From an uncultured Planctomycetota bacterium (GTDB taxonomy: Bacteria; Planctomycetota; PLA2; JAEUHO01), in assembly GCA_963752285.1 (NCBI GenBank), contig CAVVXN010000005.1, positions 2,208,001 to 2,272,000 on the forward strand: 64,000 bases of DNA. The letters run 5' to 3'. Every line of letters starts with the position of its first letter. Positions within the stretch are counted from its first letter, which is position 1. Both the position numbers and the translations under genes were made by a program. Below, one piece after another: positions 6,528-49,027 of the stretch. The notes under the pieces were generated by a model. It was not told the DNA's origin. It worked only from the letters and a program-made list of their open reading frames with translations, and made no database searches.

Positions 6528-8504
6528 CTAGTCGTTCCCGTGGTGACCGTGGTGACCGTGGTGACCGTGGTGACCGTGGTGGCCGTGGCCATCGCAGTCG
6601 CAGTCGCACAGCGTCCGGAGGTAGCCGACGGAAGCGCTGTGCTTGTCGTTGTAGTAGAGCCTCTCGAGCGGATCGAGCGTGGACTCCACGACGTCGTGCA
6701 GCGGGCTCTCCCAGTCACCGGGATGCTGGAAGTTGCTCAGGACGTAGACGAAGCCGTTCAGGTCGTCGATCGGCTGGAGGCCCGTGGATTCCGCGCCCGC
6801 CGGGCAGGAGAGGATCCGGCTCAGCTTCTTCGTGTCCACGTTGTAGGCCCAGAGGAAGTTGTTGACGTGGTTGCCGCTGTCCTCGCCGACGAACAGCGTG
6901 CGCATCCCTTCGCTGAACTTGACGTTGTCGGGGTTCGCGATCTTGTCCGCGTTCGCGCTGTTGCCGAGGGCGTCGCGTACGGCGAGATCCTCGCCGATCA
7001 GCGCGTCGGGCGCCCACATCGACGTCGGGACCCACTGGCTGTGGATGGAGTGCCCGTCGGAGTCGGGCTGGTGCCCCTCGAGCTGGATCTCATAGACCGC
7101 GCCGGCGACCGGCCCCCCGACGTGGATGTCGGTGGTGCCGTCCGTCATCGACTTGTAGATGTACGACATCGCGACGTACGCACGCTTGTCGGCGCCGTTC
7201 ACCGTCATGCCTTCCATCTTCGAGAACCCCAGGGAGGCGCCGACGAGCGCCGCGTACCGGTGCGTCTCGAGGAACGCGGCCGCCTTCTCCATGCCCGGCT
7301 TCAACCGGACCCAGTTGTTCGCGCCGCTGTAGCGGATCTTCGTGTAGCTCGAGTCGCTCGGATCGACCTTCGAGACGTCCATGATGTCGGCGGCCGTGAT
7401 CCCGCCGTCCACGAGAGCCTGGATCTCGTCGCTCGTCGTGTGGCCGAGCCAGATCCAGGAGAGGTCGGCGGAGCCGGGGCCGACGCCGGAGGTCTGCGTC
7501 CACTTGGCCGCGTAGAGCGTGCCCGCGGACAGGTCGCGCTTGTGGTCCGCCACGAACAGGAACAGCCCGCCGTTCGTGGCGTCGTCGCCCATAAGGACGG
7601 TCCGCTCGTCGGGCAGCACCTGGACCACCTCGTGCGAGATGCGGCCGAGACAGTAGTGCTTCACGATGCTGGCCGTGCCGTCGGCGTGGACGGTCACCTC
7701 GGGGATGTGCCCGTAGTCGTAGGGGTTGGCGGCGCTGGGGTCGCCGAACAGGTTCGTGCTGAAGGCCTCGAGCTGCGCGTTGCTGGCGAGGGTCGCGTCC
7801 GGCTCGTACTCCTCGCTGGACAGGTGCGTGCCCCAGGGCGACGTGCTCGCGGCGCAGGTGATCCAGAGGCCCCGCGCGTCGGACGTGTCCACGTTGTGGT
7901 AGCTGACGAGGCTGAGCTCGCCCGTGCACGAGTCCTGGTCGAGGGTCAGCACCGCGATCGGCGACGGGAGCTTCCCGTACATCGAGTCGCCGTCGTCGTT
8001 GTAGGAGACGTACTCGAACTGCACGACGGCGAAGATGCGCTTGCACCCGTTGCGGTGGGAGTGCGCGCCATCGAGCTGGATCAGGGACATCCCGTCGGGG
8101 CAGTCGGAGAAGAACTGGTGCGAGTCGGCGGACGTCGGATCGACGATCGGCACGCCGTCGATGTCGTAGCAGCCCCCGGCCACGATGGTGCCGCCGCCGG
8201 TCTTCGGCACCACGTCGCCGGTCAGGAAGAGGCTTTCGTACGCGAGGTCGCACGTCTCGGCGTCGTGCGGTCCCCGGATCGTCGTCAGCGAGGACGCGAC
8301 GTAGGTCGACGCCATCTGCGTCGGGTCGGAGAGCGACGGCGCGTCCATCGAGTCGAACACGTAATGGGCATGTGCGCCGCCGGGCGTCGCCTGCGCGACG
8401 TCGGGCGCGCTGCCGAGCCAGGCGGCGACGAGAAGCAGGGAAACGACGGTCAGCAGGGTGCTGCCGAGCGAATGTCGGCGGAACGGACCAACGGGGTGCG
8501 GCAT
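6528..8504 (-). CDS. phoX: PhoX-family alkaline phosphatase (DUF839) with Cys/His-rich C-terminal tail
   Basis: ATG at 8504 with GGAGA RBS; RR-containing signal peptide; motifs CAASTSPWGTHLSSEEYE, GRISHE, KMEG, NPDN, GEDS, AESTG, SNFQHPG. Confidence 0.88.
   Translation of the reverse strand: MPHPVGPFRRHSLGSTLLTVVSLLLVAAWLGSAPDVAQATPGGAHAHYVFDSMDAPSLSDPTQMASTYVASSLTTIRGPHDAETCDLAYESLFLTGDVVPKTGGGTIVAGGCYDIDGVPIVDPTSADSHQFFSDCPDGMSLIQLDGAHSHRNGCKRIFAVVQFEYVSYNDDGDSMYGKLPSPIAVLTLDQDSCTGELSLVSYHNVDTSDARGLWITCAASTSPWGTHLSSEEYEPDATLASNAQLEAFSTNLFGDPSAANPYDYGHIPEVTVHADGTASIVKHYCLGRISHEVVQVLPDERTVLMGDDATNGGLFLFVADHKRDLSAGTLYAAKWTQTSGVGPGSADLSWIWLGHTTSDEIQALVDGGITAADIMDVSKVDPSDSSYTKIRYSGANNWVRLKPGMEKAAAFLETHRYAALVGASLGFSKMEGMTVNGADKRAYVAMSYIYKSMTDGTTDIHVGGPVAGAVYEIQLEGHQPDSDGHSIHSQWVPTSMWAPDALIGEDLAVRDALGNSANADKIANPDNVKFSEGMRTLFVGEDSGNHVNNFLWAYNVDTKKLSRILSCPAGAESTGLQPIDDLNGFVYVLSNFQHPGDWESPLHDVVESTLDPLERLYYNDKHSASVGYLRTLCDCDCDGHGHHGHHGHHGHHGHHGND
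6538..6582 (-). repeat. 9-bp tandem repeat (CCGTGGTGA on +, five units, last imperfect) encoding (GHH)5
   Basis: Read directly from the sequence. Confidence 0.9.
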
Positions 8505-8586
8505 GAACGATCTCCAGGATTCGCGGGAGCGATCCGTGCCCCCGGGCGAACGAGGTGACGTAGGTAGGGCGCGGTGGTGGCGCCGT

Positions 8587-8618
8587 GGTGAATGCGAGGT
8601 GAGAGTTCGGTGAATGCG
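8587..8618 (-). promoter_or_regulatory. PHO-box-like direct repeats, 11-bp period
   Basis: GGTGA on + at 8587, 8598 and 8609. Minus strand reads CATTCACC/CTCTCACC/CATTCACC, 83-114 nt upstream of the phoX start. Confidence 0.65.
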
Positions 8619-9230
8619 TCCCTCGCGTCGGCGACGGCGCGTCGGAGGGTCCGCCACGGTGACTCCTGCGGACGCGCGGCGGGGTCCGCCGAGTCGCCGA
8701 CGCGACGCACGCGGCATCGGGCATCGCGCGCGCAACGCGGACCGCGCGCCGAGACCGCGCGCCGCACGCGCACGACATCGCGCGCGCGTGCGCTCGGGGC
8801 GACGCGTACCCGCCGACGTCGGCTCGGGCCACGGAACGGCGCGCCGTTGCGGAACCACGAGGCCGCGTTCCGAAGACGGGGCAGGGTGCCGGCGCGTCCC
8901 TCGCCGAGACGGGCCGGCCCCCTGGACTCGTCCGAGCCGAGGTCCTCCTCCAGGGAGCCCATCCGAACCGACCGTCGTAAAGAAGCGAAGCGGAGGCGGT
9001 GAATTGCCCCGGGCGATGACCTTCGACCCGCGCCGGTCACGAGGGTCGCGGGAGGCCGACCGAGGTCAGCGAACCGCGCACCGCCGGAGCAGACGCACCC
9101 CCGCCGCGAACCCGACGCGCCGCGAGGCCGCGCCGACCGGACCACGGCACGGGACGGAGGCCGGAACCCGTCCCGCACGAACCGCAGGCGGCTCGATACG
9201 ATGCGCGAGGACTCGGTCGGGAGGTCGCGG

Positions 9231-9323
9231 ATGCGTCACTGGTGGAAGGCCCTGGCCCTCGCTCTTCTCCTCGGCTCGGCGGCGCTCACCTCCGCCTGCG
9301 CGAGCTGCGGTCCCACCGGCTGA
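9231..9323 (+). CDS. 30-aa small protein, putative micro-lipoprotein MRHWWKALALALLLGSAALTSACASCGPTG
   Basis: TACGAT -10 at 9197-9202, GGAGG at 9220-9224, ATG 9231, TGA 9321-9323, followed by a GC hairpin. Classic n/h-region signal peptide ending LTSA-C. Confidence 0.65.
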   Translation: MRHWWKALALALLLGSAALTSACASCGPTG

Positions 9324-9377
9324 CGCCCGGTCGCGCCGCCGGGTGCGGCGCCTCCCCTCATCCGCTAGGGTCGGCCG

Positions 9378-9551
9378 TCAGTCCGACCGCGGGCGGCGCC
9401 CGTGCGCCGCGTCGGCCTCCTTCGCGATGCGCTCGAGCCTCGCGAGGTGCTGGAGGAACGCGCGGCGTCCCGCGGCGGTGAGCCGGTACGTGGTCCGGGG
9501 CTTCCGGTGGACGAACCGCTTGTCGACGGCGACGTCCCGGGCCCGGGCCCC
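9378..9551 (-). pseudogene. 3' half of a winged-helix (HTH_34/ArsR-like) transcriptional regulator, no start codon
   Basis: Translates ...DVAVDKRFVHRKPRTTYRLTAAGRRAFLQHLARLERIAKE..., the wing and final helix of this family. It lies in frame directly after the TGA of the phosphotransferase gene. Confidence 0.7.
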
Positions 9552-10445
9552 TCAAACGCTGCGGGCGAGGAGGGTCAGGCGCTCCACGCAGCCGCGGGCG
9601 ATCGCCGCGGCGTCGAGCCACGGGGGCGGATCCTGGAGGTCGCAGAGCTCGCAGATCGTCGAGCAGAGATCGACGCGCGCGAGGTCCATCGACCGACCGG
9701 TCGTCCTCTCGTAGCGCCTCGCCGCGCGGCGGACCAGGTCGTTCGAGACCATGTGGAGCGGCGCGAGCTCGCCGTGCACGTCGCCGATCGCGGCGTCGCC
9801 GAAGTCGAAGAGCCCGACGAGCCGCCGCGCCTCCCGGTCGAAGGCCATGTTCCAGCCGTGCGCGTCGAAGTAGCCGAAGACCGGGTCCCCCGCCGGCACG
9901 GCGAGCGAGGGGGAGCGCTCGATCGCCTCGCGGGCGAAGGGGACGAGATCCCGGGGCAGCCGCGGCAGCACGTCCCGCAGACGATCGGGGCCGGGGAGCG
10001 GGGGAAGGGGCCCGGCGCCGAGCGCCCGCGCCTCGGCGAGGGGGATCTCGTGGAGCGTCGCGAAGAGGGCGACCACCCCCTCGGCGACCCCGTCGCGCTC
10101 CGCGGGCGCGAGTCGCTCGTAGTCCGGGGCGAGGAGGTGGTCGCCCGGGATCTTCCGGTGGAACGAGAAGGGCCACGGGCCGTCCCGGAGCCGGGGGCGG
10201 GGCGTCTCGACCGGCAGGGCCGGGACCCGCGCGCAGATCCGCACCTCGCGTCCGAGCGTCCGGAGCGCCCGGGCGTCTCGCGGGAAGCGGACGATCCACC
10301 GGCCGTCGTCCACGGCGACCGAGTCCCAGCCCGTGTCGTTCGCGCGAGCCCGCCCCGCGTCGAACCCGGGAAGGCGCGGCGTGACCACCCGCGCGAGGAA
10401 CGCGGGCGTCACGTCGCTCGGTCGGCGGACGAAGCTCGGTGCCAT
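9552..10445 (-). CDS. Aminoglycoside phosphotransferase (APH) family kinase
   Basis: GWDS loop, WIVRFPR, catalytic-loop variant YFDAHGWN, GLFDFGDA. Confidence 0.8.
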   Translation of the reverse strand: MAPSFVRRPSDVTPAFLARVVTPRLPGFDAGRARANDTGWDSVAVDDGRWIVRFPRDARALRTLGREVRICARVPALPVETPRPRLRDGPWPFSFHRKIPGDHLLAPDYERLAPAERDGVAEGVVALFATLHEIPLAEARALGAGPLPPLPGPDRLRDVLPRLPRDLVPFAREAIERSPSLAVPAGDPVFGYFDAHGWNMAFDREARRLVGLFDFGDAAIGDVHGELAPLHMVSNDLVRRAARRYERTTGRSMDLARVDLCSTICELCDLQDPPPWLDAAAIARGCVERLTLLARSV

Positions 10446-10503
10446 GGGGCGGGCGGTCTCCCTCTCCCGTGCGGGGGGCGCAAGACGAGCGTATCCTCCC
10501 GGC

Positions 10504-10971
10504 GTGAGCGACCCGCCGTGCTGGCTGCTCTCGAAGCGCCTCCGCGACCTCGCCCGGGAGGTGGCCGCGGCTCCCGACCCGGCGTCGGCCGAGGCGGTCT
10601 GGCGCCAGATGGACCTCGCGATCGCCGAGGCGGGCGCCGAGGACGACGAGGACCTGGTGCTGCCGGTCCTCGTGCGGAGCCTCCCGGACCTCGAGGCGCG
10701 CTTCGCGGCCTGGGACCGAGGCGACGCGCCCCTCCCCGCGCCCGACAAGGCGCTCCTGAAGCGCGCGATGAACGCCTTCCGCCGGCGACTCAAGCTGACT
10801 CGACTCGACGACGAGGTCACGGCGTCGAGGAACCCGCTCAGCCGGGGCGGGACGTCGTCGATCTGCGGCGTACGCCCGCCGGAGCAGTACCCCCCGGAGG
10901 TGTGGGAGATCCTCGTCCGCCAGGGACGGCTCCGCGACGGCGGGCACGGGCTCCTCGAGCCCGCCGAGTAG
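10504..10971 (+). CDS. Conserved hypothetical protein (Planctomycete-type, LKRAMNAFRRRLKLTRLDDE motif)
   Basis: GTG start 6 nt after TATCCT; coherent protein-like sequence; C-terminal domain recalled from Planctomycete hypotheticals. Confidence 0.7.
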   Translation: MSDPPCWLLSKRLRDLAREVAAAPDPASAEAVWRQMDLAIAEAGAEDDEDLVLPVLVRSLPDLEARFAAWDRGDAPLPAPDKALLKRAMNAFRRRLKLTRLDDEVTASRNPLSRGGTSSICGVRPPEQYPPEVWEILVRQGRLRDGGHGLLEPAE

Positions 10972-11006
10972 CGATCCGCGCCGTGTGCTCCTCGCGCGCC
11001 GCGATC

Positions 11007-11711
11007 GTGGGACCCTCTCGCACCGACCTGTCGTGTCACGGCGGCGGTCGAGACGCGCCCGACCCCGAGGTGTTCACGTACACGCCGCGCATCTTGCGGT
11101 TCTACGACGTCGCGGTCCACGGGTTGATGTTCCCGATGGTGTGGCGCTGTCCCGGGCGCCGGCTGCTCCGCCCGTACCGGGAGCTCCTCGCGGCCCGCCA
11201 CCTCGAGATCGGCGTGGGCACCGGCTACCTGCTCCGCCACGGTCGGTGGCCGACGAGGACGCCCCAGGTGGTGCTCCTCGACCGCAGCGCCTTCCCCCTC
11301 GAGGCCACGCGGCGCCGCATCGCGAACCTCCGGCCGACGACGGTCCTCGCCGACGCGATCGAGCCCTTCCCCGACCTCGGGGCGCCCTTCGGCTCCGTCG
11401 GGATGAGCCTCCTCCTCCACTGCCTCCCGGGGCCCCTCGCGAACAAGGCGCGGGTCTTCGACCACGTGCGCCCCTGGATGGCGCCCGGCGCGGTGGTCTT
11501 CGGAGCCACGGTGCTCGGTAAGACCCGACGGACGACGAGGCGACGGCGCCTCGCCCTCGCCTACATGAACCGGAGGGGGATCTTCTCGAACCGAGAGGAC
11601 GACCTCGACGGCCTCCGGCAGGAGCTCGACCGACGCTTCCCGAGCGTCCGGGTCGAACGGATCGGGCAGGTCGCCTGCTTCGAGGCGCGAAGTTGGTCCG
11701 ATACCGCATAG
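11007..11711 (+). CDS. Class I SAM-dependent methyltransferase (start uncertain, GTG 11007 or 11070)
   Basis: HLEIGVGTGY motif I, VLLD motif II, LLHCLPG, GIFSNRED. Confidence 0.82.
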   Translation: MGPSRTDLSCHGGGRDAPDPEVFTYTPRILRFYDVAVHGLMFPMVWRCPGRRLLRPYRELLAARHLEIGVGTGYLLRHGRWPTRTPQVVLLDRSAFPLEATRRRIANLRPTTVLADAIEPFPDLGAPFGSVGMSLLLHCLPGPLANKARVFDHVRPWMAPGAVVFGATVLGKTRRTTRRRRLALAYMNRRGIFSNREDDLDGLRQELDRRFPSVRVERIGQVACFEARSWSDTA

Positions 11712-11721
11712 GCTCTCGGAC

Positions 11722-12711
11722 GTGCCGTCTCGCTCCCGCGCCCCGTCCACCCCCCTGCTCGTCCTCTGGACGCTCGTCCTGTTCGGGGTGTGGAGCCACT
11801 CCTTCATCGCGATCGGCTACCTCCTCGGCAGCGAGAAGGTCCCGGCTCGCTTCGACTGGCTCTCCCTCACCGTGGCGAGGTTCGTCCCCGTGCTCTTCGC
11901 GCTCCTGCCGGTCGTGCTGGGTCCCTGGCGGCGGGAGACGGTGCGCGTCGTCCGTCGGCGGTGGCGGCGACTCCTGGTGTGCGGGCTGCTCGCCGTGCCG
12001 GGCTACGCCTTCGCGCTCTACTTCGGACAACAGCACGGCGTGCCGCCCCCCATCGCCTCGCTCGAGACGGCGCTCGCTCCCCTGTTCCTGATGATGCTCG
12101 GCGCGGGGTTCCTCGGCGAACGGCTGTCGACGAAGAAGCTCCTCGGGTTCGCCGTCGCGCTCGCGGGTCTCGCGTTGATCGCGACCGCGAAGGAGGGGGG
12201 CGAGAAGGCGACGTACGCGGTGGTCGTCGGCATCACGGCCCTCGCGCCGCTCCAGTGGGCCGTCCACTCCGTGCTCACGAAGGCCGTGAGCCACGAGTGC
12301 GCCCCGGCGCTCTGGGCCTACCTCGTCCTCGTCTTCGGCTCCTTCCCTCTGCTCTTCGTGCTCCCGTTCCACGGCGCGCGGGAGATGGCGCACCTCGACG
12401 CGAGCGGCTGGGCCGCGCTCCTCTTCCTCTCGCTCTTCTGCACCGTGTTCGGGAACGCCGCCTGGACCTGGCTCGTCAAGCACCTCCCGGCCTCGACCGT
12501 CGGCTTCACGATCTTCCTGAACCCGCCGCTCACGACCACGAGCAAGGCCGTGCTCGCCGCGGCGCTGCCCGCGACGTTCGCCTTCCAGATCGTCCCGCTC
12601 GAGTGGGTGGGCAGCGCGATCGTGCTGGTGGGCATGGCCGTGGCGCTCGTGCGCCGCCGCGGCCGCTCGACGGCCCCGTTCCCCGATCCCGCGGTCCCGG
12701 TGGGCGAGTAG
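11722..12711 (+). CDS. DMT/EamA family transporter
   Basis: About 10 hydrophobic helices in two repeats; FLGERLS, LNPP motifs. Confidence 0.88.
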   Translation: MPSRSRAPSTPLLVLWTLVLFGVWSHSFIAIGYLLGSEKVPARFDWLSLTVARFVPVLFALLPVVLGPWRRETVRVVRRRWRRLLVCGLLAVPGYAFALYFGQQHGVPPPIASLETALAPLFLMMLGAGFLGERLSTKKLLGFAVALAGLALIATAKEGGEKATYAVVVGITALAPLQWAVHSVLTKAVSHECAPALWAYLVLVFGSFPLLFVLPFHGAREMAHLDASGWAALLFLSLFCTVFGNAAWTWLVKHLPASTVGFTIFLNPPLTTTSKAVLAAALPATFAFQIVPLEWVGSAIVLVGMAVALVRRRGRSTAPFPDPAVPVGE

Positions 12712-12716
12712 GCCGG

Positions 12717-13444
12717 CTACGCGTGGCGGTTCTTGACCCGGAGCTCCTGGAGCCGGCCGGCCGGGTCCACGGCCTTCACCGCCGCCGCGACCCGGTTCTC
12801 CGGGTGGAGGGCCTCCCAGTACGCGTCGAGCACCCCGATCGGCCGGCCCTCGAGGGGCAGCAGGAGCGGGTCGCCCGCGAACGAGGGGAGCGGCGTGCCG
12901 TCCCCCCGGTACGTCGTGAGCCCGTAGCCGAAGCCGGGCGACGGCGTGGCGGGCCGGTAGACGTACCGGTCCGTCCGGCCCGAGTCGATCGGGTTCGCCT
13001 TGAGGATCCCGAGCTCGATCCGTCCCTCGCCCCGGCGGAAGTCGAGGAGCCCGGCGATCCGCGGCGTGTAGTTGGGCGCATCGGGCTCTCGCTCGCGGGT
13101 GCCGAGCGCGGCCGCGAAGCTCCCCCCGCGCCGATCGAGTCCACGATCGTCTTCGTCTGGTCGCCGTTCGAGACCACCTGCACCCTCTCGAGGGCGAGCA
13201 TCGCGTCGTAGAGGATCAGGCTCGGGTCCTTAACGAGGCTCGGGTCCACGGCCTCGGTGTAGAGCCGGTCGCCCTCGGTCCGCAGGCGCCGGTTCCGCGA
13301 GCTCTCGCTCCGTCCCATCAGGAAGTAGACGAGGAGCCAGCCCGGCGCGTCGGAGCGCCGCCCGACGACGAGCCCGCGCCCGGGGTAGGGGTTCTCGACC
13401 AGGTGGCGATCGAACGCCTCCCGTGCGACGGACCTCGCGTCCAT
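12717..13444 (-). pseudogene. IMP cyclohydrolase-like protein (PurO-like fold), frameshifted at a G6 run
   Basis: ATG 13444 with GAGGAG RBS. N-half has NPYPGRG, YFLMGRSESSRNR, VSNGDQT. C-half in another frame has EPDAPNYTPRI, TTYRGDGTPLPSF. Length 728 nt; one extra G at 13122-13127 restores the frame. Confidence 0.8.
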
Positions 13445-13624
13445 GGCGCGCTCCTCGTGCCGGTCTCCCGGCGCCGTGCCTCCCGCCGAGAGTCTACCGG
13501 CGTTGTCCCGCGGCACGCCGGGGGATCGGAACGTCCCGAGCCGGCGTGGGCGGCCCCCGCCCGGGGTAGGGGGTCCGCCCGCCGTCCTGCAAGATGTCGG
13601 CTTCGCCTCGACGGAGGTCCCACC

Positions 13625-14557
13625 GTGTCGATCTTCGACCGCCTGGTCGCCGCCACGATCCCGATCACGCCCAAGTTCGTCGTGGGGCGCGTCGCGCGCC
13701 GCTACATCGCCGGCGAGACGATCGAGGACGCGATCGAGACGATCCGCGGGCTCAACGCCTCGGGTGCGCTCGCGACCGTGGACGTCCTCGGCGAGTTCAT
13801 CCACGAGTTTTGCGAGGCCGAGGCGACGGCGCGCGGCTACGAGGCGGCGCTCGACGCCATCCACCGCGAGAAGCTCGAGAGCAACGTGTCCGTGAAGCTC
13901 ACGGCGCTCGGTCTCCTGCTCGACGAGGAGCGGTGCACCGACCTCGTCCGAGGCATCGCGAGCCGAGCCGCGGACCAGGGAAGCTTCGTGCGCGTGGACA
14001 TGGAGGACTCGCCCGTCACCGAACGAACCCTCCGCCTCGTCCGCCGCCTCTTCTCGGAGGGCCTTCCCGTCGGCGCCGTGCTGCAGGCATACCTGCACCG
14101 CACCGTGGACGACGCGCGCGCGCTGGGGCAAGAGGGCATCTCCGTCCGGCTCTGCAAGGGCATCTACCGGGAACCACCCGAGATCGCCTTCCAGGACCGG
14201 GAGGCGATCCGCGACTCCTACCGCCGCGCGCTGGCTGCGCTCCTCGAGGGGCGGGGGGGCGTCGGGATCGCGACGCACGACGAGGTGCTGGTCGAAGACG
14301 CGCGCCGCGCCGTCGGGGCGCGGAGGACGCCGCCCGCGCGCTACGAGTTCCAGATGCTCCTCGGTGTCCGCGAGTGGCTCCGGGAGGAGCTGATCCACAG
14401 CGGCGAGAGCGTCCGGGTCTACGTGCCGTTCGGAACCCACTGGTACGGGTACTCGACCCGGCGGCTCCGGGAGAACCCCAGCGTCGCGGGACACGTCATG
14501 AAGGCGCTCCTCGGCCTGGACCGCGCGAAGGGAAGGCGCTCCCCCCACGCCCCGTAG
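13625..14557 (+). CDS. Monofunctional proline dehydrogenase
   Basis: GGAGG RBS and GTG; RYIAGE, SVKLT, VDMED, LQAYL, VRLCKGIY, IATHD, EFQMLLG, VYVPFG, RRLREN. Confidence 0.93.
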   Translation: MSIFDRLVAATIPITPKFVVGRVARRYIAGETIEDAIETIRGLNASGALATVDVLGEFIHEFCEAEATARGYEAALDAIHREKLESNVSVKLTALGLLLDEERCTDLVRGIASRAADQGSFVRVDMEDSPVTERTLRLVRRLFSEGLPVGAVLQAYLHRTVDDARALGQEGISVRLCKGIYREPPEIAFQDREAIRDSYRRALAALLEGRGGVGIATHDEVLVEDARRAVGARRTPPARYEFQMLLGVREWLREELIHSGESVRVYVPFGTHWYGYSTRRLRENPSVAGHVMKALLGLDRAKGRRSPHAP

Positions 14558-14601
14558 CCCTGCGGCTTGGTCGGCGGGGGGGGACGCGGTACGCTTCCGG
14601 C

Positions 14602-15006
14602 ATGGGGGGGAGGCGCTCCGATCCGCTTCGGTGGGCCGCGCTGATCGCGCTGGTCGCGCTCGTGGTCTTGGGCGTGCTGCACTTCGCGAGGCCGGCGGGC
14701 GAGGGCGGGCAGACGCCGGGACCGAGACGGCGGGCGCCCGCGGACGCGTACGTCGGGCCGCGGTCCTTCGACGACGAGGCGGCGAGCGACGTGCTCGCGA
14801 CCGTCGCGGCCAGCCTCGGCCGCGCGCTCGCCCCCACCGACGCGGCGAGGGCGGCGCTCCAGGACGTTCGCGTCACCCTGGAGCTCGAGGAGACGACGGG
14901 GGCGGCGCTCCTGGACCGCCTGCTCCATCCGCGCGGCCTCGTGTGGATGGCCGACGACCCCACGACGCTGTGGATCGGAACCAAGGACGAGCGCCCGGGC
15001 CGTTGA
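14602..15006 (+). CDS. Membrane-anchored hypothetical protein with STN-like domain
   Basis: N-terminal TM helix WAALIALVALVVLGVLHF; C-terminal VTLELEETTGAALLDRLLHPRGLVW. Confidence 0.6.
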   Translation: MGGRRSDPLRWAALIALVALVVLGVLHFARPAGEGGQTPGPRRRAPADAYVGPRSFDDEAASDVLATVAASLGRALAPTDAARAALQDVRVTLELEETTGAALLDRLLHPRGLVWMADDPTTLWIGTKDERPGR

Positions 15007-15180
15007 CCGGGACCGGGCCGCGCCCGTCCCGGCGCGCCAAGGCCACCGTGGACCGCGCGCCGCGCGTTCGAACGCACGCGCCCGCCGGGCGCCGCGGACG
15101 AAGGGCCCGCGGCCCGGCCCCTCGCCGCCCCGGGGGCGCGGCGGGCGTACGCTCGTCGTCCGCACGCGAGAGGGACCGAC

Positions 15181-16545
15181 GTGATCACCACCACCAACCC
15201 CGCGACCGGCGAGGTCCTCGGCACGTACGACACGCTCGACGACGACGCGCTCGACCGCGCGATCGAGGCCACCGCGGCCGCCTGGCCCCGGTGGAGCGAG
15301 ACGTCGTTCGAGGCCCGTGCGGAGGTCCTCTGCCGCGCGGCGAAAGCGCTCCGCGACGACGCCTCCGCGCACGCACGACGCATGGCGGACGAGATGGGGA
15401 AGCCCGTGCGCGAGGGCCGCGCCGAGGCGGAGAAGTGCGCGTGGGTGCTCGAGGCGTACGCGGAGAACGGCGAGGCGTTCCTGGCGTCCGAGCAGGTCGA
15501 AACCGACGCAACGAGGAGCTTCGTCGCGTTCCGGCCGCTCGGCGTCGTCTTGGCGGTGATGCCGTGGAACTTCCCGTACTGGCAGGTGTTCCGGTTCGCC
15601 GCCCCGGCACTGATGGCGGGGAACGCGGGGCTCCTCAAGCACGCGTCGAACGTCCCGGGCTGCGCGCAGGCCATCGAGGACGTCTTCCGCGACGCGGGCC
15701 TGCCCGAGCACGTGTTCCGGTCGATCCGCATCCCCGGCGAGCGCGTCGGGCGCGCGATCGAACACCCCCGCGTGGCGGCGGTGACGCTCACCGGGAGCAC
15801 GCCCGCGGGACGGTCGGTCGCGGGGGCGGCCGGCCGCGCGCTCAAGAAGACCGTGCTGGAGCTGGGCGGGAGCGACCCGTACGTGATCCTCGCCGACGCC
15901 GACGTCGAGCACGCGGCCGCCGTGGCCGCGAAGAGCCGCTGCATCAACTCGGGACAGTCGTGCATCGCCGCGAAGCGCTTCGTCGTCGAGGCGCCGCTCG
16001 TGGCGCGCTTCGAGAGGCTGCTCGTCGAACGCATGGGCGCCCTCCGCATGGGCGACCCGCGCGACGAGGCGACGGACGTCGGGCCGCTCGCGCGGGCGGA
16101 CCTCCGCGACGACCTCCACCGCCAGGTCTCGGAGAGCGTCGAGAGAGGCGCACGGTGCCTGCTGGGCGGCGAGGTCCCCGCGGGCCCCGGCGCGTACTAC
16201 CCCCCCACCGTTCTCGCCGGCGTGGGCCCCGGGATGCCGGCGTACGACGAGGAGACGTTCGGCCCGGTGGCCGCGGTGATCCCCGCCGAGGACGAGGCCG
16301 ACGCGATCCGCATCGCGAACGACACGGTGTTCGGGCTCGGCGCCGCGGTGTTCACGAGCGACGCCGCGCGCGGCGAACGCATCGCCACCCACGCGCTCGA
16401 CGCCGGCTGCTGCTTCGTGAACGACCTCGTGCGATCCGATCCCCGCCTCCCCTTCGGCGGCATCAAGGAGAGCGGCTACGGCCGCGAGCTCTCCCGCTAC
16501 GGGATCCGCGAGTTCGTGAACGTGAAGACGGTCTGGATCCGCTGA
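15181..16545 (+). CDS. NAD(P)-dependent succinate-semialdehyde dehydrogenase-type aldehyde dehydrogenase
   Basis: MPWNFP, LKHA, TLTGS, LELGGSDP, NSGQSC, EETFGPV, PFGGIKESGYGRE. Confidence 0.93.
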   Translation: MITTTNPATGEVLGTYDTLDDDALDRAIEATAAAWPRWSETSFEARAEVLCRAAKALRDDASAHARRMADEMGKPVREGRAEAEKCAWVLEAYAENGEAFLASEQVETDATRSFVAFRPLGVVLAVMPWNFPYWQVFRFAAPALMAGNAGLLKHASNVPGCAQAIEDVFRDAGLPEHVFRSIRIPGERVGRAIEHPRVAAVTLTGSTPAGRSVAGAAGRALKKTVLELGGSDPYVILADADVEHAAAVAAKSRCINSGQSCIAAKRFVVEAPLVARFERLLVERMGALRMGDPRDEATDVGPLARADLRDDLHRQVSESVERGARCLLGGEVPAGPGAYYPPTVLAGVGPGMPAYDEETFGPVAAVIPAEDEADAIRIANDTVFGLGAAVFTSDAARGERIATHALDAGCCFVNDLVRSDPRLPFGGIKESGYGRELSRYGIREFVNVKTVWIR

Positions 16546-16646
16546 CCCGCGGTCCCGGCGCGCCCTCGCGCACATCCGGCCGGGGTCCGCCTCGTCGTCT
16601 TCCGACCCGCCGCCCCGCATACGCTGGCGGCGACGAACGGAGACGC

Positions 16647-17807
16647 ATGCGCGAAGCGACACGGACGCCGGAGGGGCTCGTCGTGGTGCCGCTCCCCCAC
16701 CCGCAGGGCTGCCGCACCTACCTCGTCGGCGACCCCGCGTCGAAGGAAGCGCTCGTCGTGGACCCGCACCTCGACGGCGTCTCGGATCTCGTGCGCGAGG
16801 GCGCGGGTCGCGGCTGGCGTCTCCGGTGGATCGTGGACACGCACACCCACGCCGACCATCCGTCGGGCGCCGCGGCGCTCGCGAGCGGGAACGCCGCGAC
16901 GCGCGTGGCGCACGCACGCGCGGGCCACGCGGGGGTCACGCACTTCCCCGACGACGACGAGCCCCTCGCCCTCGGCGACCGCGCGCTGGTCGTCCGTCAC
17001 GCGCCGGGGCACACGTCCGACCACCTGGTGCTCGTCGCGCCGGGCGCGTTGTTCTCGGGCGACTCGCTCCTGCTGGGCGCGGTCGCGCGCGCGGACTTCC
17101 TCGGTGGCGACGCCGGCGCGCTCTTCGACAGTCTGGAGCGCGTCGTCGGTCCACTCGCCGACGACACGACGGTGTTCCCGGGCCACGACTACGCCGGGCG
17201 CGTGTCCGGCCGTCTCGGTGAGGAGCGGCGCACGAACCCCTGGCTCGCGCTCCCCGACCGCGACGCGTTCGTGCGCGCCCTCGAGGCGAACCGTCCGCCC
17301 CGACCCGCGAACATGGCGGCCCTCCTCCGCTGGAACCGGGAGGGCCGCGCGCTCCCGGTGTCGGTGGACGCCGCGGAGGTCGTGGCGATCGTTCGGTCCG
17401 GCGGCGCGGGCTCGATCATCGACGTCCGGACGGACCCGGAGGTGGAGGGCGCGCACGTCCCGGGCTCGCGCCACGTCGTGCTGGACGAGCTCCCCGACCG
17501 GGTCCGGGAGATCCTCGAGACGCCCGCCCCCCGGCTCCTCCTCTGTCACGTCGGGCAGCGCGCGGAGCTGGCGCGTCGGTGGCTCTCCGCCCAGGGCGTG
17601 TCCGGGCTCCAGACCGTCGAGGGCGGGATCGCGGCGTACGCCGCCGCGGGGGGTCCCCTCGCCGGCGGGCGGCCCCGGATCTCGGCCTCGGGCGGTTGCG
17701 GCGCCGCCGCGCCCCCGACGGGGGGTGGATGCGCCGCGGCGCCGCCGTCGTTCTCGGACGATGACCACGAAAATCGACTCAAGCCAAAGGGCCCCGCCGC
17801 TCGATAG
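16647..17807 (+). CDS. MBL-fold hydrolase (persulfide dioxygenase-like) fused to a rhodanese domain
   Basis: DTHTHADH, PGHT, SGDSL, PGHDY, then IDVR and active-site loop CHVGQR. GGAG RBS. Confidence 0.85.
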   Translation: MREATRTPEGLVVVPLPHPQGCRTYLVGDPASKEALVVDPHLDGVSDLVREGAGRGWRLRWIVDTHTHADHPSGAAALASGNAATRVAHARAGHAGVTHFPDDDEPLALGDRALVVRHAPGHTSDHLVLVAPGALFSGDSLLLGAVARADFLGGDAGALFDSLERVVGPLADDTTVFPGHDYAGRVSGRLGEERRTNPWLALPDRDAFVRALEANRPPRPANMAALLRWNREGRALPVSVDAAEVVAIVRSGGAGSIIDVRTDPEVEGAHVPGSRHVVLDELPDRVREILETPAPRLLLCHVGQRAELARRWLSAQGVSGLQTVEGGIAAYAAAGGPLAGGRPRISASGGCGAAAPPTGGGCAAAPPSFSDDDHENRLKPKGPAAR

Positions 17808-17879
17808 TGACGGACGCGTGAGACTCGGCCGCTCGGCGGCGGCCGGGGGTGTGGCCCCGGAGGGCCCTGGGAGCCGCCC

Positions 17880-18851
17880 ATGCGTCACTGGATCCTCGGC
17901 GCCGCCGCGTGCGCCTTCGTCGTCCTCGCGGTGGCCCCCGCCGGCGCGGACACGGCCTACGTGAGCACGTACTACAGCACGCTCACGACCATCGACACGA
18001 GCGCGGGTTCCACCAGCTCGTTCTCGTATGCGGGCACCGCCGACACCCGTGGCGCCGCCTTCGACCTCGACGGCACCCTCTACACGACGACGAACGGCGG
18101 GGCGTCGCTCGGCGCCTACGACACGACGACCGGCGCGGTGACGGTGATCGGGAGCCTCCTCGGCGCGGGCTCATTCGACCAGCTCTACGCGATCGACATC
18201 GACTCGAACGGCACGCTCTACGGCGTCACGTGGACGTACGGGTACCTGTACCAGATCGACAAGTCCACGGGCACGCCGACCCAGATCGGCTCGACGGGCG
18301 CGTTCGGCTTCACCGACCTCGCGTTCGACGCGAACGACGTCCTCTGGGGCGTCGCCTCGAACCAGCTCTACACGATCGACGTCTCGACCGGCCAGGCCAC
18401 CCTGCAAGGCTCGATCAGCGGCGTGGCGGCCTACACGTACGTCGAAGGCATCATGTTCGACGCGGCGGGGAACCTGCTCGCGACCACGAGCACGGCGAAC
18501 GCTCCGCTCCTCTACATCGACCTCTCGACGTTCGCCGCGACACAGGTCGCTCTGACCGGCGCCTTCATGCCCTACGCCGGCGACATCTTCGTCCCCGTCG
18601 CCTCGGCGTCGGACGACCCGACCACGGGGGACGAGGGCGACGACGCGGACGGCGAGGACGACGGCTGTGACGGCCACCACCGCCAGGACGGCGCTCACGG
18701 GCACCACGGGCACCACGGGCACCACGGGCACCATGGACGCTTCGGCCCGCACTCGCACGAGAGCCACGGCCACCCGTCCGCGGCGCAACACGGCCACGCC
18801 GCCGCGGCGAGCCACGCCTGCGCCGGGCACGACGCGCACGGCCACCGCTAA
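17880..18851 (+). CDS. Secreted beta-repeat (propeller-like) protein with acidic and His-rich C-terminal tail
   Basis: Signal peptide ending APAGA-D; repeated AFDxxGxLY and LYxIDxSTG units; tail DDGCDGHH...(GHH)4...HGHR. Confidence 0.8.
   Translation: MRHWILGAAACAFVVLAVAPAGADTAYVSTYYSTLTTIDTSAGSTSSFSYAGTADTRGAAFDLDGTLYTTTNGGASLGAYDTTTGAVTVIGSLLGAGSFDQLYAIDIDSNGTLYGVTWTYGYLYQIDKSTGTPTQIGSTGAFGFTDLAFDANDVLWGVASNQLYTIDVSTGQATLQGSISGVAAYTYVEGIMFDAAGNLLATTSTANAPLLYIDLSTFAATQVALTGAFMPYAGDIFVPVASASDDPTTGDEGDDADGEDDGCDGHHRQDGAHGHHGHHGHHGHHGRFGPHSHESHGHPSAAQHGHAAAASHACAGHDAHGHR
18696..18731 (+). repeat. 9-bp tandem repeat (CACGGGCAC)4 encoding GHH repeats
   Basis: Read directly from the sequence. 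Confidence 0.9.
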
Positions 18852-24107: not shown

Positions 24108-24707
24108 CTACTGCCTCTGGCCCTCGACCGCGATCGTGATCCACACCGTGTCGCTGACGCCGGGGATCCCCCCCGTCATGCCGAACCGGCTCCGCTCGAT
24201 CGTCGTCGAGCCCTCGAAGCCCGTGCGGTGGCCCACGCGCGGGTCATCGATCTCGCCGGTCTTCACGACCTTCATCTGGACCGGCTTCGTCACGCCGTGG
24301 AGCGTCAGGTCGCCGGTCACGTTCCACGCGTCGGTCCCCGCCTTCTCGACCTTCGTGCTCTTGAAGGTCATCTCCGGGTACTGCTCGACGTCGAAGAAGT
24401 CCGCCGAGCGCAGGTGCTGATCGCGCTTCTCGTTGTTGGTGTCCACGCTCGCGGTCTGGATCGTGAGCTCGACGCTCGACGCGTCCGGCGCGTCGGCGTC
24501 GAGCAGGTACCGGCCCGAGAAGTCGTCGAAGCGCCCGTACACGTGGCTCACGTCCATGTGCTTCACCTTGAACATCGCCGTCGAGTGCGCGGGGTCGATC
24601 TCGTACGTCGAGGGCGCCGCGACGGCGGGCCCGACCCGCACGAAGGCGACGAGGAGGGCGGCCCCGAGGGCCAGGGCGACCGCGAGCACGCGGGGGGAGG
24701 TCGTCAT
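24108..24707 (-). CDS. YceI family lipid/polyisoprenoid-binding protein (copy 2)
   Basis: IDPAHS, GRF, RDQHLRSADFFD, GDLTLHGVTK; signal peptide; GGAG RBS. Confidence 0.92.
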   Translation of the reverse strand: MTTSPRVLAVALALGAALLVAFVRVGPAVAAPSTYEIDPAHSTAMFKVKHMDVSHVYGRFDDFSGRYLLDADAPDASSVELTIQTASVDTNNEKRDQHLRSADFFDVEQYPEMTFKSTKVEKAGTDAWNVTGDLTLHGVTKPVQMKVVKTGEIDDPRVGHRTGFEGSTTIERSRFGMTGGIPGVSDTVWITIAVEGQRQ

Positions 24708-24760
24708 GGGCGATGCTCCTTCGGCTTCGGCCCGCGCACGGGCGGGCCGGGGGGGGCCCG

Positions 24761-24773
24761 AGGGTGGCAACGG
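24761..24773 (-). promoter_or_regulatory. 13-bp motif CCGTTGCCACCCT shared upstream of both yceI genes (copy 2)
   Basis: Identical to 25548-25560, at a similar distance from the start codon (54 vs 57 nt). Confidence 0.55.
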
Positions 24774-24885: not shown

Positions 24886-25491
24886 CTACTTGCGGACACC
24901 CTCCACCGCGACCGTGACGTGAACCTCGTCCCCGATCGCCGGGAGCGCGTACGTCATCCCGAACTCGCTCCGCTTGATCGTCATCGTGCCCTCGAACCCG
25001 GTGCGGTGCTCGTGGTGCATGCCCTCGCCCTCGCCGGTCTTCACGAGGTCCATGGTCATCGGTTTCGTGACGCCGTGGAGCGTGAGGTTCCCGTCCACGC
25101 GCCACCGGTCCGGACCCGGCATCGCGACCTTCGTGCTCTTGAAGGTCATCGTCGGGAACTGCTCGACGTTCAGGTAGTCGGCCCCCATCAGGTCCTGGTT
25201 GCGCTTCGCGTTGTTCGTGTCGATGCTGTTCGTCTCGACGGTGATGTCCACCTCCGAGGAGGCGGGCGCGGCCGCGTCGAGCACGTAGCGGCCCGAGAAC
25301 ACGTCGAAGCGCCCGTAGACGTAGCCGACGTCCAGGTGCTTCACCTTGAAGAGGAAGGTCGAGTGCACGGGGTCGATCTCGTACGTCTCCGGCGCGGCGA
25401 GGGCGGGTCCGCCCGCGAAGAACGAGGCGACGCTCACGGCGGCGAGCCCGAGGACGAGCGGAAGGGCGAGGGAGCGGGCGGATCGCGACAT
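24886..25491 (-). CDS. YceI family protein (copy 1)
   Basis: IDPVHS, GRF, RNQDLMGADYLN, GNLTLHGVTK; signal peptide; GGAGG RBS. Confidence 0.92.
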   Translation of the reverse strand: MSRSARSLALPLVLGLAAVSVASFFAGGPALAAPETYEIDPVHSTFLFKVKHLDVGYVYGRFDVFSGRYVLDAAAPASSEVDITVETNSIDTNNAKRNQDLMGADYLNVEQFPTMTFKSTKVAMPGPDRWRVDGNLTLHGVTKPMTMDLVKTGEGEGMHHEHRTGFEGTMTIKRSEFGMTYALPAIGDEVHVTVAVEGVRK

Positions 25492-25547
25492 GGGGTTCCT
25501 CCGGGGCCGGGGACCGGGCGGGCCTCCCGCCCCGTCCTGCGCGCCCA

Positions 25548-25560
25548 AGGGTGGCAACGG
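25548..25560 (-). promoter_or_regulatory. 13-bp motif CCGTTGCCACCCT shared upstream of both yceI genes (copy 1)
   Basis: Identical to 24761-24773. Confidence 0.55.
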
Positions 25561-48319: not shown

Positions 48320-49027
48320 TCAGTTCGTGCGGGGCACGCTCAGCCCGACCGCCTCGCAGGGCTGCTTCTTGCACGGGATGACCGGGCACGGCGCCGGGCA
48401 CTCGCACTCCGCACAGTTCTCGGAGGGCTTCCAGGCCCAGTAGCCGGGGGTGTAGAGTTCCTTCACCCACTGGACGCGATACGTCCCCGGCACGTACTCC
48501 TCGCGGCAGCGGGTGACCGGCTCCGACCAGGCCTCGGTCATGTACTTGGGCGGGATCTCGGTGCAGTACTGGATGCCCCGCTCGGTCACGACCTTGTTGC
48601 ACCACTGGTAGCAGCCGGGCTCGTAGCAGTACTTCCAGCAGTCCGCGCCCCCCGGACCCGGGACGCGCTTCCACACGTACCCGCCGGGCTTCACCTGGAC
48701 GACCGCCTGGTCGCACCGGAGGTCGGGGGTCTGACACACTCGCTGCTCGGCGGGCTTCACGCACACGTCGCGGAACCGGGTCCGCATCACGGTCTCGGGG
48801 GTGACCTGGGTCCGTGGCGGGGACACCATCACGAGGCGGGGCACGTTCCGGTAGACCGGCGGCACCCAGACCCTGCAGTACGTGGTGCAGGGCAGGGGAT
48901 CGGGGGGCAGGTCCGTCGGGAGGACCCCGCAACCGACCCCGCCCCGTGGGGCGGACTGGCACCCGACGAGGCCGAGGAGGGCCGCGCCGAGGACGGCCGA
49001 AGCGATGCGTGTGTGGCTCCGAGTCAT
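48320..49027 (-). CDS. Cysteine-rich lipoprotein with PxxY/PGxYxW repeats
   Basis: Lipobox LVGC; 19 Cys; GGGAG RBS. Confidence 0.8.
   Translation of the reverse strand: MTRSHTRIASAVLGAALLGLVGCQSAPRGGVGCGVLPTDLPPDPLPCTTYCRVWVPPVYRNVPRLVMVSPPRTQVTPETVMRTRFRDVCVKPAEQRVCQTPDLRCDQAVVQVKPGGYVWKRVPGPGGADCWKYCYEPGCYQWCNKVVTERGIQYCTEIPPKYMTEAWSEPVTRCREEYVPGTYRVQWVKELYTPGYWAWKPSENCAECECPAPCPVIPCKKQPCEAVGLSVPRTN

Follow-up and report, generated by a model that had tools for sequence, protein, structure and literature searches.

Two unrelated exported proteins encoded in a 64,000-nucleotide stretch of the genome of an uncultured Planctomycetota soil bacterium (GCA_963752285.1, contig CAVVXN010000005.1, positions 2,208,001 to 2,272,000; hereafter, the window) end in tails built from the tripeptide repeat Gly-His-His, (GHH)n, preceded by Cys and Asp residues. 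One of the carriers is a PhoX-family phosphatase, and the other is a lectin-like beta-propeller protein. Our interpretation, to which we give a probability of about 0.6, is that these tails work as natural His-tags outside the cytoplasm, where they would capture or buffer metal or provide adhesion through metal bridges. The original prediction for this DNA had proposed a sorting or metal-capture tag; its metal-capture half is plausible, whereas the sorting and anchoring half found no support.

Anatomy of the two tails

The C-terminus of the PhoX-family protein is LCDCDCDGHGHHGHHGHHGHHGHHGND, with 11 His and the layout CDCDCD-GH-(GHH)5-GND. The tail itself, CDCDCDGHGHHGHHGHHGHHGHHGND (26 aa; 6531..6608 of the window, minus strand), comes after ...VGYL, with which the conserved family core ends. 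Its DNA reads (TGCGAC)x2.8 and then GGCCAC GGCCACCAC (GGTCACCAC)x4, which corresponds to a 6-bp tandem array of TGCGAC coding for CDCDCD (6592..6608, minus strand; period 6, 2.8 copies, and 100% matches in Tandem Repeats Finder, TRF) and a 9-bp array coding for (GHH)n (6538..6588, minus strand; TRF period 9, 5.7 copies, 97% matches), with four perfect copies.

The propeller protein ends, after ...YAGDIFVPVA, in SASDDPTTGDEGDDADGEDDGCDGHHRQDGAHGHHGHHGHHGHHGRFGPHSHESHGHPSAAQHGHAAAASHACAGHDAHGHR, with 21 His in its last 60 residues. This 84-residue tail (18597..18848, plus strand) is composed of an acidic linker, GCDG, HH, (GHH)4, and a final 38-aa His-rich stretch, RFGPHSHESHGHPSAAQHGHAAAASHACAGHDAHGHR. 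The repeat, (GGGCACCAC)x3 + GGGCACCAT at the DNA level, forms a 9-bp array at 18696..18733 (plus strand; TRF period 9, 4.2 copies, 100% matches); further periods of 9 and 24 bp, both degenerate, were detected there by TRF. The AlphaFold model predicts the tail to be disordered: from residue 240 on, model confidence (pLDDT) declines, first to 63 and then, over most of the tail, below 50. Both tails were present as originally described, each as a His-dense terminus, predicted to be disordered, outside the folded core (11 His in 26 residues in the PhoX-family protein, 21 His in 60 in the propeller protein).

The two (GHH)n arrays use different Gly codons, as had been noted before, and at the DNA level the tails resemble each other in nothing but the repeat unit, where 8 of 9 bases agree. 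Because the Gly codons differ and the flanks show no similarity, the two arrays seem to have arisen independently and not by old gene conversion.

The carrier proteins

The PhoX-family (DUF839) gene (6528..8504, minus strand) encodes 658 aa and matches Pfam PF05787 over residues 201-574 with 77.9 bits, for a cut-off of 24. The protein is 70-75% identical to proteins named in their source as PhoX family phosphatase or DUF839, and is related to the Pseudomonas PhoX structures by a distant match only (phmmer, E 4e-4). In that alignment, the active-site region C-A-x(4)-P-W-G-T-x-L-x(2)-E-E is shared (ITCAASTSPWGTHLSSEE in the query, NCANGKTPWGTYLTCEE in the structures), and we take its Cys to be the Fe3+ thiolate ligand. 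A Tat-like (twin-arginine translocation) signal peptide of 39 aa, ...PFRRHSLG...AQA (8388..8504, minus strand), was read by eye at the N-terminus, MPHPVGPFRRHSLGSTLLTVVSLLLVAAWLGSAPDVAQA, in which the RR motif FRRHSL precedes a hydrophobic stretch that runs to AQA; an RR motif of the S-R-R-x-x-L-K type lies within the first 55 residues in 107 of the 120 listed PhoX homologues. According to a study of PhoX, the enzyme requires two Fe3+ and three Ca2+, uses a thiolate ligand, and is exported folded via Tat, and iron supply is thought to be limiting for it (PMC4223295).

The gene of the propeller protein (17880..18851, plus strand; 323 aa) codes for a DUF6923/DUF4394-like protein that reaches 32.2 bits against Pfam DUF6923 (cut-off 27), with DUF4394 and tachylectin below their own cut-offs. 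In the AlphaFold model, residues 24-238 have pLDDT >90 and form 20 strands, which correspond to five predicted blades, and a Foldseek search with this model returned generic propellers only (TM 0.4-0.59). Its N-terminus, MRHWILGAAACAFVVLAVAPAGA (17880..17948, plus strand), is by eye a Sec-type signal peptide and is helical in the model. Read in this way, both proteins have the signal peptides that had been attributed to them. No family was matched at E <= 0.01 in an NCBIfam scan of either protein.

Occurrence of the tails in the genome

The assembly comprises 4.64 Mb in 5 contigs, with 73% G+C and a completeness of 89%. Its six-frame set of open reading frames (ORFs) of at least 60 aa includes 33,297 ORFs, of which 3093 pass a coding filter based on the G+C content at third codon positions (GC3). 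Only the PhoX-family and propeller ORFs showed a run of (GHH)2 or longer in the whole six-frame set, so the search for further carriers in the proteome, proposed with the original prediction, came back empty. When the last 30 residues of the 3093 filtered ORFs were ranked by His content, these two proteins took the first two places (11 and 8 His, respectively), the next one having 6, and 1744 ORFs having none. In addition, perfect 9-bp arrays of 4 or more copies number only four in the genome, and the GHH arrays of the PhoX-family and propeller genes account for two of these.

Homologues and related genomes

Homologues were compared in two sets, 120 listed for the PhoX-family protein and 120 for the propeller protein (240 in all), and (GHH)n tails were found in none of either set. 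The last 45 residues contained fewer than 6 His in every propeller homologue listed, and a search with the propeller tail alone (residues 240-323) against 5.8 billion protein clusters yielded 195 candidates, none of them with E <= 0.001. At the DNA level, the (GHH)3 pattern was absent from a panel of 40 related genomes, spanning from the same genus to the same phylum. Among 400 further genomes drawn from across the phylum, two had it, within a 43-aa ORF in one case and a low-GC3 ORF of RDH repeats in the other; neither is a convincing coding tail. The claim that the tails constitute a lineage-specific module was thus not borne out, as no other ORF of the genome, no listed homologue, and none of the 40 relatives presented one.

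Beyond the conserved VGY, the ends of the PhoX homologues vary, with at least one Cys in 21 of the 120 and at least two His in 7 of them. The closest homologue (75% identity) ends in DCGCECGHGAKGSEGRGH, where DCGCECGHG provides a counterpart of the CxCxC motif, and other members end in HEHEHDD, KHHDHDD, or CTRHDD; besides, the mature N-terminus is His-rich in 4 of the 120. On this comparison, the Cys/Asp part of the PhoX tail clearly appears to have a history within its own family. For the propeller protein, family specificity of the Cys/Asp part is weakly indicated: its acidic linker and Cys resemble the DxDxDGDGxxDxxDxC linker of the four closest homologues at a best blastp E of 0.05, which is not significant, and the MAFFT alignment of its DGCDG with the DGCDSG of the homologues may be a low-complexity coincidence. 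The C-D-G-H motif shared by the two tails, to which the original prediction had attached meaning, looks coincidental in the light of these two ancestries.

As a separate observation, the closest propeller homologues (P0003, P0004, P0008, and P0014) share a C-terminal module of another kind, in which the DxDxDGDGxxDxxDxC linker is followed by a Cys-containing helical domain of about 60 aa (...NHGxFVSCVxxL...GKEKGxIQSCAA...).

No orthologue of either gene was detected in the 40 relatives, where the best PhoX match had E 1.7e-4 and the best propeller match 38% identity. In the genome of the same genus, the genes between and around the two loci were loosely syntenic (EamA, IMP-cyclohydrolase-like/ProDH, M48 peptidase, MFS) and the PhoX-family and propeller genes were missing, which indicates two separate accessory insertions; a single island holding both genes was ruled out by the same synteny. 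Absence of the PhoX-family gene from the 40 relatives, together with 70-75% identity to gammaproteobacterial and betaproteobacterial genes (Steroidobacteraceae, Thiobacillus, Nitrogeniibacter), suggests that it was acquired horizontally. Its local G+C is 0.689, compared with 0.72-0.75 nearby, and its GC3 is already 0.96.

Proposed metal binding versus neutral slippage

By established coordination chemistry, a stretch like (GHH)5 with CxCxC ahead of it should chelate Zn, Ni, Cu, Co, and Fe strongly. In the mechanism that we propose, slippage of the 6- and 9-bp repeats built extensions, predicted to be disordered and rich in Cys, Asp, and His, at the C-termini of two accessory exported proteins, and both tails would most likely act in the periplasm or on the cell surface as ligands of divalent or transition metals. 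The PhoX tail would capture or buffer metal beside a metal-dependent active site, the propeller tail would serve metal binding or metal-bridged adhesion, and no dedicated machine would read either of them as a sorting signal.

The alternative that deserves most discussion is that slippage was neutral or slightly deleterious and left two young microsatellite-like arrays at disordered C-termini that tolerate them, with no selected function, a possibility that we regard as unlikely, although far from negligible. It agrees with the perfection of the repeats, with their absence from the 240 listed homologues, the 40 relatives, and effectively the 400 phylum genomes, and with the lack of significant matches to the propeller tail on its own. 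Against it stands the coincidence that two of the four perfect 9-bp arrays code for one and the same tripeptide repeat, with identical phase and at the C-terminus of exported proteins, when the phylum sample (2 of 400) leads one to expect the (GHH)3 DNA pattern at about 0.005 per genome; this coincidence suggests selection. That the tails are kept for a reason is further suggested by the continuation of the propeller tail into 38 non-repetitive His-rich residues with coding-type GC3 (0.95), and by the recurrence of short Cys/His/acidic tails after VGY in the PhoX subfamily. Taking these points together, we infer that metal binding is the function for which the tails were selected.

Several observations weigh against selected metal binding. 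The tails come from one metagenome-type assembly, 89% complete, and purifying selection cannot be shown for sequences found in a single assembly; moreover, the perfect repeats are evolutionarily young. That both tails bind metal is predicted from composition and modelled disorder, and a role in cofactor supply leaves the propeller tail unexplained, since the propeller is no known metalloprotein. Ectopic conversion, with each array homogenised afterwards, could also account for the pair of tails in place of two independent origins. Finally, a crude signal-peptide test scored all four GH-type tails of the genome as belonging to exported proteins, a result of little weight and no demonstration of enrichment, because the background was 46%, any in-frame start having been allowed.

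A more elaborate form of metal binding, in which convergent selection placed the same (GHH)n tail on two unrelated exported proteins, either to chaperone or buffer metal in cis for PhoX and its Fe-Ca centre or to serve as a metal-bridged tether to envelope or mineral surfaces that replaces a PEP-CTERM anchor, seems improbable to us.

The tails as a possible sorting signal

If the tails served sorting or anchoring, as the other part of the original prediction has it, a dedicated enzyme would recognise Cys-Asp-Gly-His with the His tract, as exosortase recognises PEP-CTERM, and process or anchor the carrier. Both proteins are exported, both tails contain CDGH, and the PEP-CTERM-like position that had been claimed was confirmed for the propeller protein, whose tail begins exactly where 34 of the 120 homologues carry a PEP-CTERM-like tag, directly after the HGGDI junction; some other propeller homologues carry domains of the type IX secretion system (T9SS). 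However, no PEP motif, transmembrane helix, or Arg/Lys cluster was found in either tail, both being hydrophilic throughout and thus devoid of a hydrophobic or basic anchor segment, neither protein matched a sorting-domain model of Pfam or NCBIfam, and no candidate processing enzyme adjoins either gene. The genome, in addition, already has a PEP-CTERM/exosortase system of its own, with 18 tags, mostly in contig C2, and one exosortase. The CDGH 4-mer is no strong signature, since the ORF set contains it 5 times where 1.7 occurrences would be expected, and the Cys/Asp parts differ in ancestry, one being a 6-bp repeat for which the nearest homologue has a CxCxC counterpart and the other an acidic linker with Cys of weak resemblance to homologues. 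With two substrates, no instance in 40 relatives, and no enzyme in the neighbourhood, the picture is not that of a dedicated sorting system.

Elsewhere, at least 120 occurrences of (GHH)4 came up in a scan of 185,579 species genomes. The contexts of 83 arrays from 80 loci were inspected, with protein names taken from ORF reading and not from domain searches. These contexts were mixed: the cytoplasmic C-terminus of a cation diffusion facilitator (CDF) transporter (L097), zinc-ribbon proteins of Streptomyces, a Spo0M-like protein, a secreted repeat protein of an Obscuribacterales metagenome-assembled genome, and many doubtful short ORFs. Going by those names, (GHH)4 is found on cytoplasmic as well as secreted proteins. 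Two of the loci (L033 and L049; Planctomycetaceae, Gimesia) encode small secreted Gly/Tyr/Ser-rich proteins ending in (GHH)4-5, which may form a family of their own.

The absence of further carriers, homologues without the tail, and occurrence on cytoplasmic proteins are essentially what the original prediction had itself named as grounds for abandoning it, and the tails as a candidate new sorting system do not hold up; we consider this explanation very improbable.

Reading frame and assembly

An assembly or frameshift artefact, with an indel placing the repeats in a false frame, could be suspected from the 5 contigs, which suggest long reads, as few-contig assemblies can carry indel errors, and from the propeller tail, which was bridged by none of the metagenome short-read contigs compared; nevertheless, it can be dismissed as barely credible, given that the PhoX tail stays in frame after the conserved VGYL, that its nearest homologue has a Cys/His tail too, and that both frames are supported as follows. 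A soil-metagenome short-read contig of 151 bases spans 6558-6708 without a gap; it differs by a single substitution, Leu to Val ahead of the first Cys, and confirms the junction from the PhoX core through CDCDCD to GHGHH. For the propeller tail, two findings speak for the annotated frame: its GC3 past the repeat (18735-18848) is 0.95, and the other two frames offered no PEP-CTERM remnant and no other recognisable ending. A short contig matching 18704-18733 was rejected as evidence for this tail, as its flanks are unlike on both sides and it is probably the repeat of another organism.

Comparison with known systems

His-rich terminal extensions of exported metalloproteins are already known, and the tails described here extend them to a PhoX-family phosphatase and a lectin-like propeller, both in one genome. 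Battistoni et al. in 2001 reportedly dealt with the N-terminal His-rich domain of periplasmic Cu,Zn superoxide dismutase (SOD). This work is cited by PMC8382915 and by a report on a Tat-exported two-domain multicopper oxidase of Cellvibrio japonicus, which mentions the His-rich N-terminus of periplasmic SodC (Cu,Zn-SOD) as a metal-recruiting site (PMC13151041). According to that report, the oxidase has a His-rich disordered region, native to the protein and restricted to the genus, that takes up two additional Cu and adheres to Ni resin. Like these extensions, the tails described here are lineage-restricted, His-dense, and predicted to be disordered, most members of the families lack them, and the PhoX tail lies outside the catalytic core of an exported metal-dependent enzyme. 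The published extensions bound extra metal and were proposed to recruit it, whereas here binding is predicted from sequence and model. The tails also differ in being C-terminal, in consisting of perfect (GHH)n after CxCxC, and in being borne by an Fe/Ca PhoX-family phosphatase and a non-enzymatic propeller.

A further likeness is found in the periplasmic DUF4198 proteins of "cluster 2", which have an extended His-rich C-terminal tail suspected by the authors of that study to alter metal binding (PMC12663993); there the tail is a trait of a whole sequence cluster, and in our case the tails are confined to one genome. With PEP-CTERM/exosortase (Pfam PF07589, PF09721), the shared traits are the position after HGGDI in the propeller homologues and the presence of the system in the genome; unlike PEP-CTERM tags, these tails have two carriers only and none of the PEP motif, the transmembrane helix, the basic cluster, or the model match.

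Natural His-rich tails are also present in the cytoplasm, in UreE, HypB, SlyD, CooJ, and the loops or tails of CDF transporters, where they take part in Ni or Zn handling. These are likewise His-dense, low-complexity metal-binding segments (a property that is predicted in our case), often of variable length between relatives; unlike them, the proteins described here carry export signals. A literature search on PhoX with a histidine-rich C-terminus found, among the papers listed, none that deals with a bacterial PhoX tail, judging from titles and the first lines of abstracts and with incomplete coverage.

Other features of the genome and the window

Looser tails rich in metal ligands were observed on other exported proteins of the genome, which adds to the case for metal binding. 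A DUF6600 protein with Trp/Gly-rich repeats (G000:C5:23340-24956, minus strand; L143) has a Gly/His/Asp/Lys tail, ...DDEGGHGKKGHGRGGSADGHGGSDDGHGKSDDGHGGK (GHGKKGHGRGG..GHGGK), and a TPR-like protein (G000:C4:36898-37995, minus strand; L152) has a metallothionein-like Cys/Gly tail of about 80 aa (ACAGCPCAGGCDGACGGCAGHCDGHCGGHCGDGGGCGDCPKSGDC...). A third GH-type ORF (G000:C2:154766-156409, minus strand; L142), whose N-terminus forms a membrane helix and which matches no Pfam family, ends in (GGSS)8GHGHGHGHHGG and lies in the 62-172 kb stretch of contig C2 that is home to most of the 18 PEP-CTERM matches. Finally, a lipoprotein-like ORF of the window (48320-49027, minus strand; MTRSHTRIASAVLGAALLGLVGCQS...), also without a Pfam family, bears a Cys-rich tail, ...ENCAECECPAPCPVIPCKKQPCEAVGLSVPRTN, that ends in CAECECPAPCPVIPCKKQPC, and its CxCxC recalls the PhoX tail.

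The neighbours of the PhoX-family and propeller genes have unrelated functions (adenylate cyclase, VWA, APH-like kinase, methyltransferase, EamA, ProDH, aldehyde dehydrogenase, MBL-rhodanese, GNAT, and M48). In addition, the window encodes two tandem YceI-like paralogues (24108-24770 and 24886-25557, both on the minus strand), each with a signal-peptide-like N-terminus.

Significance

If the tails do capture metal, they would be a small natural example of exported enzymes gaining private metal-recruiting appendages through repeat slippage. This would be relevant to PhoX, an enzyme that is often limited by iron, and within one subfamily of which short Cys/His/Asp tails recur.

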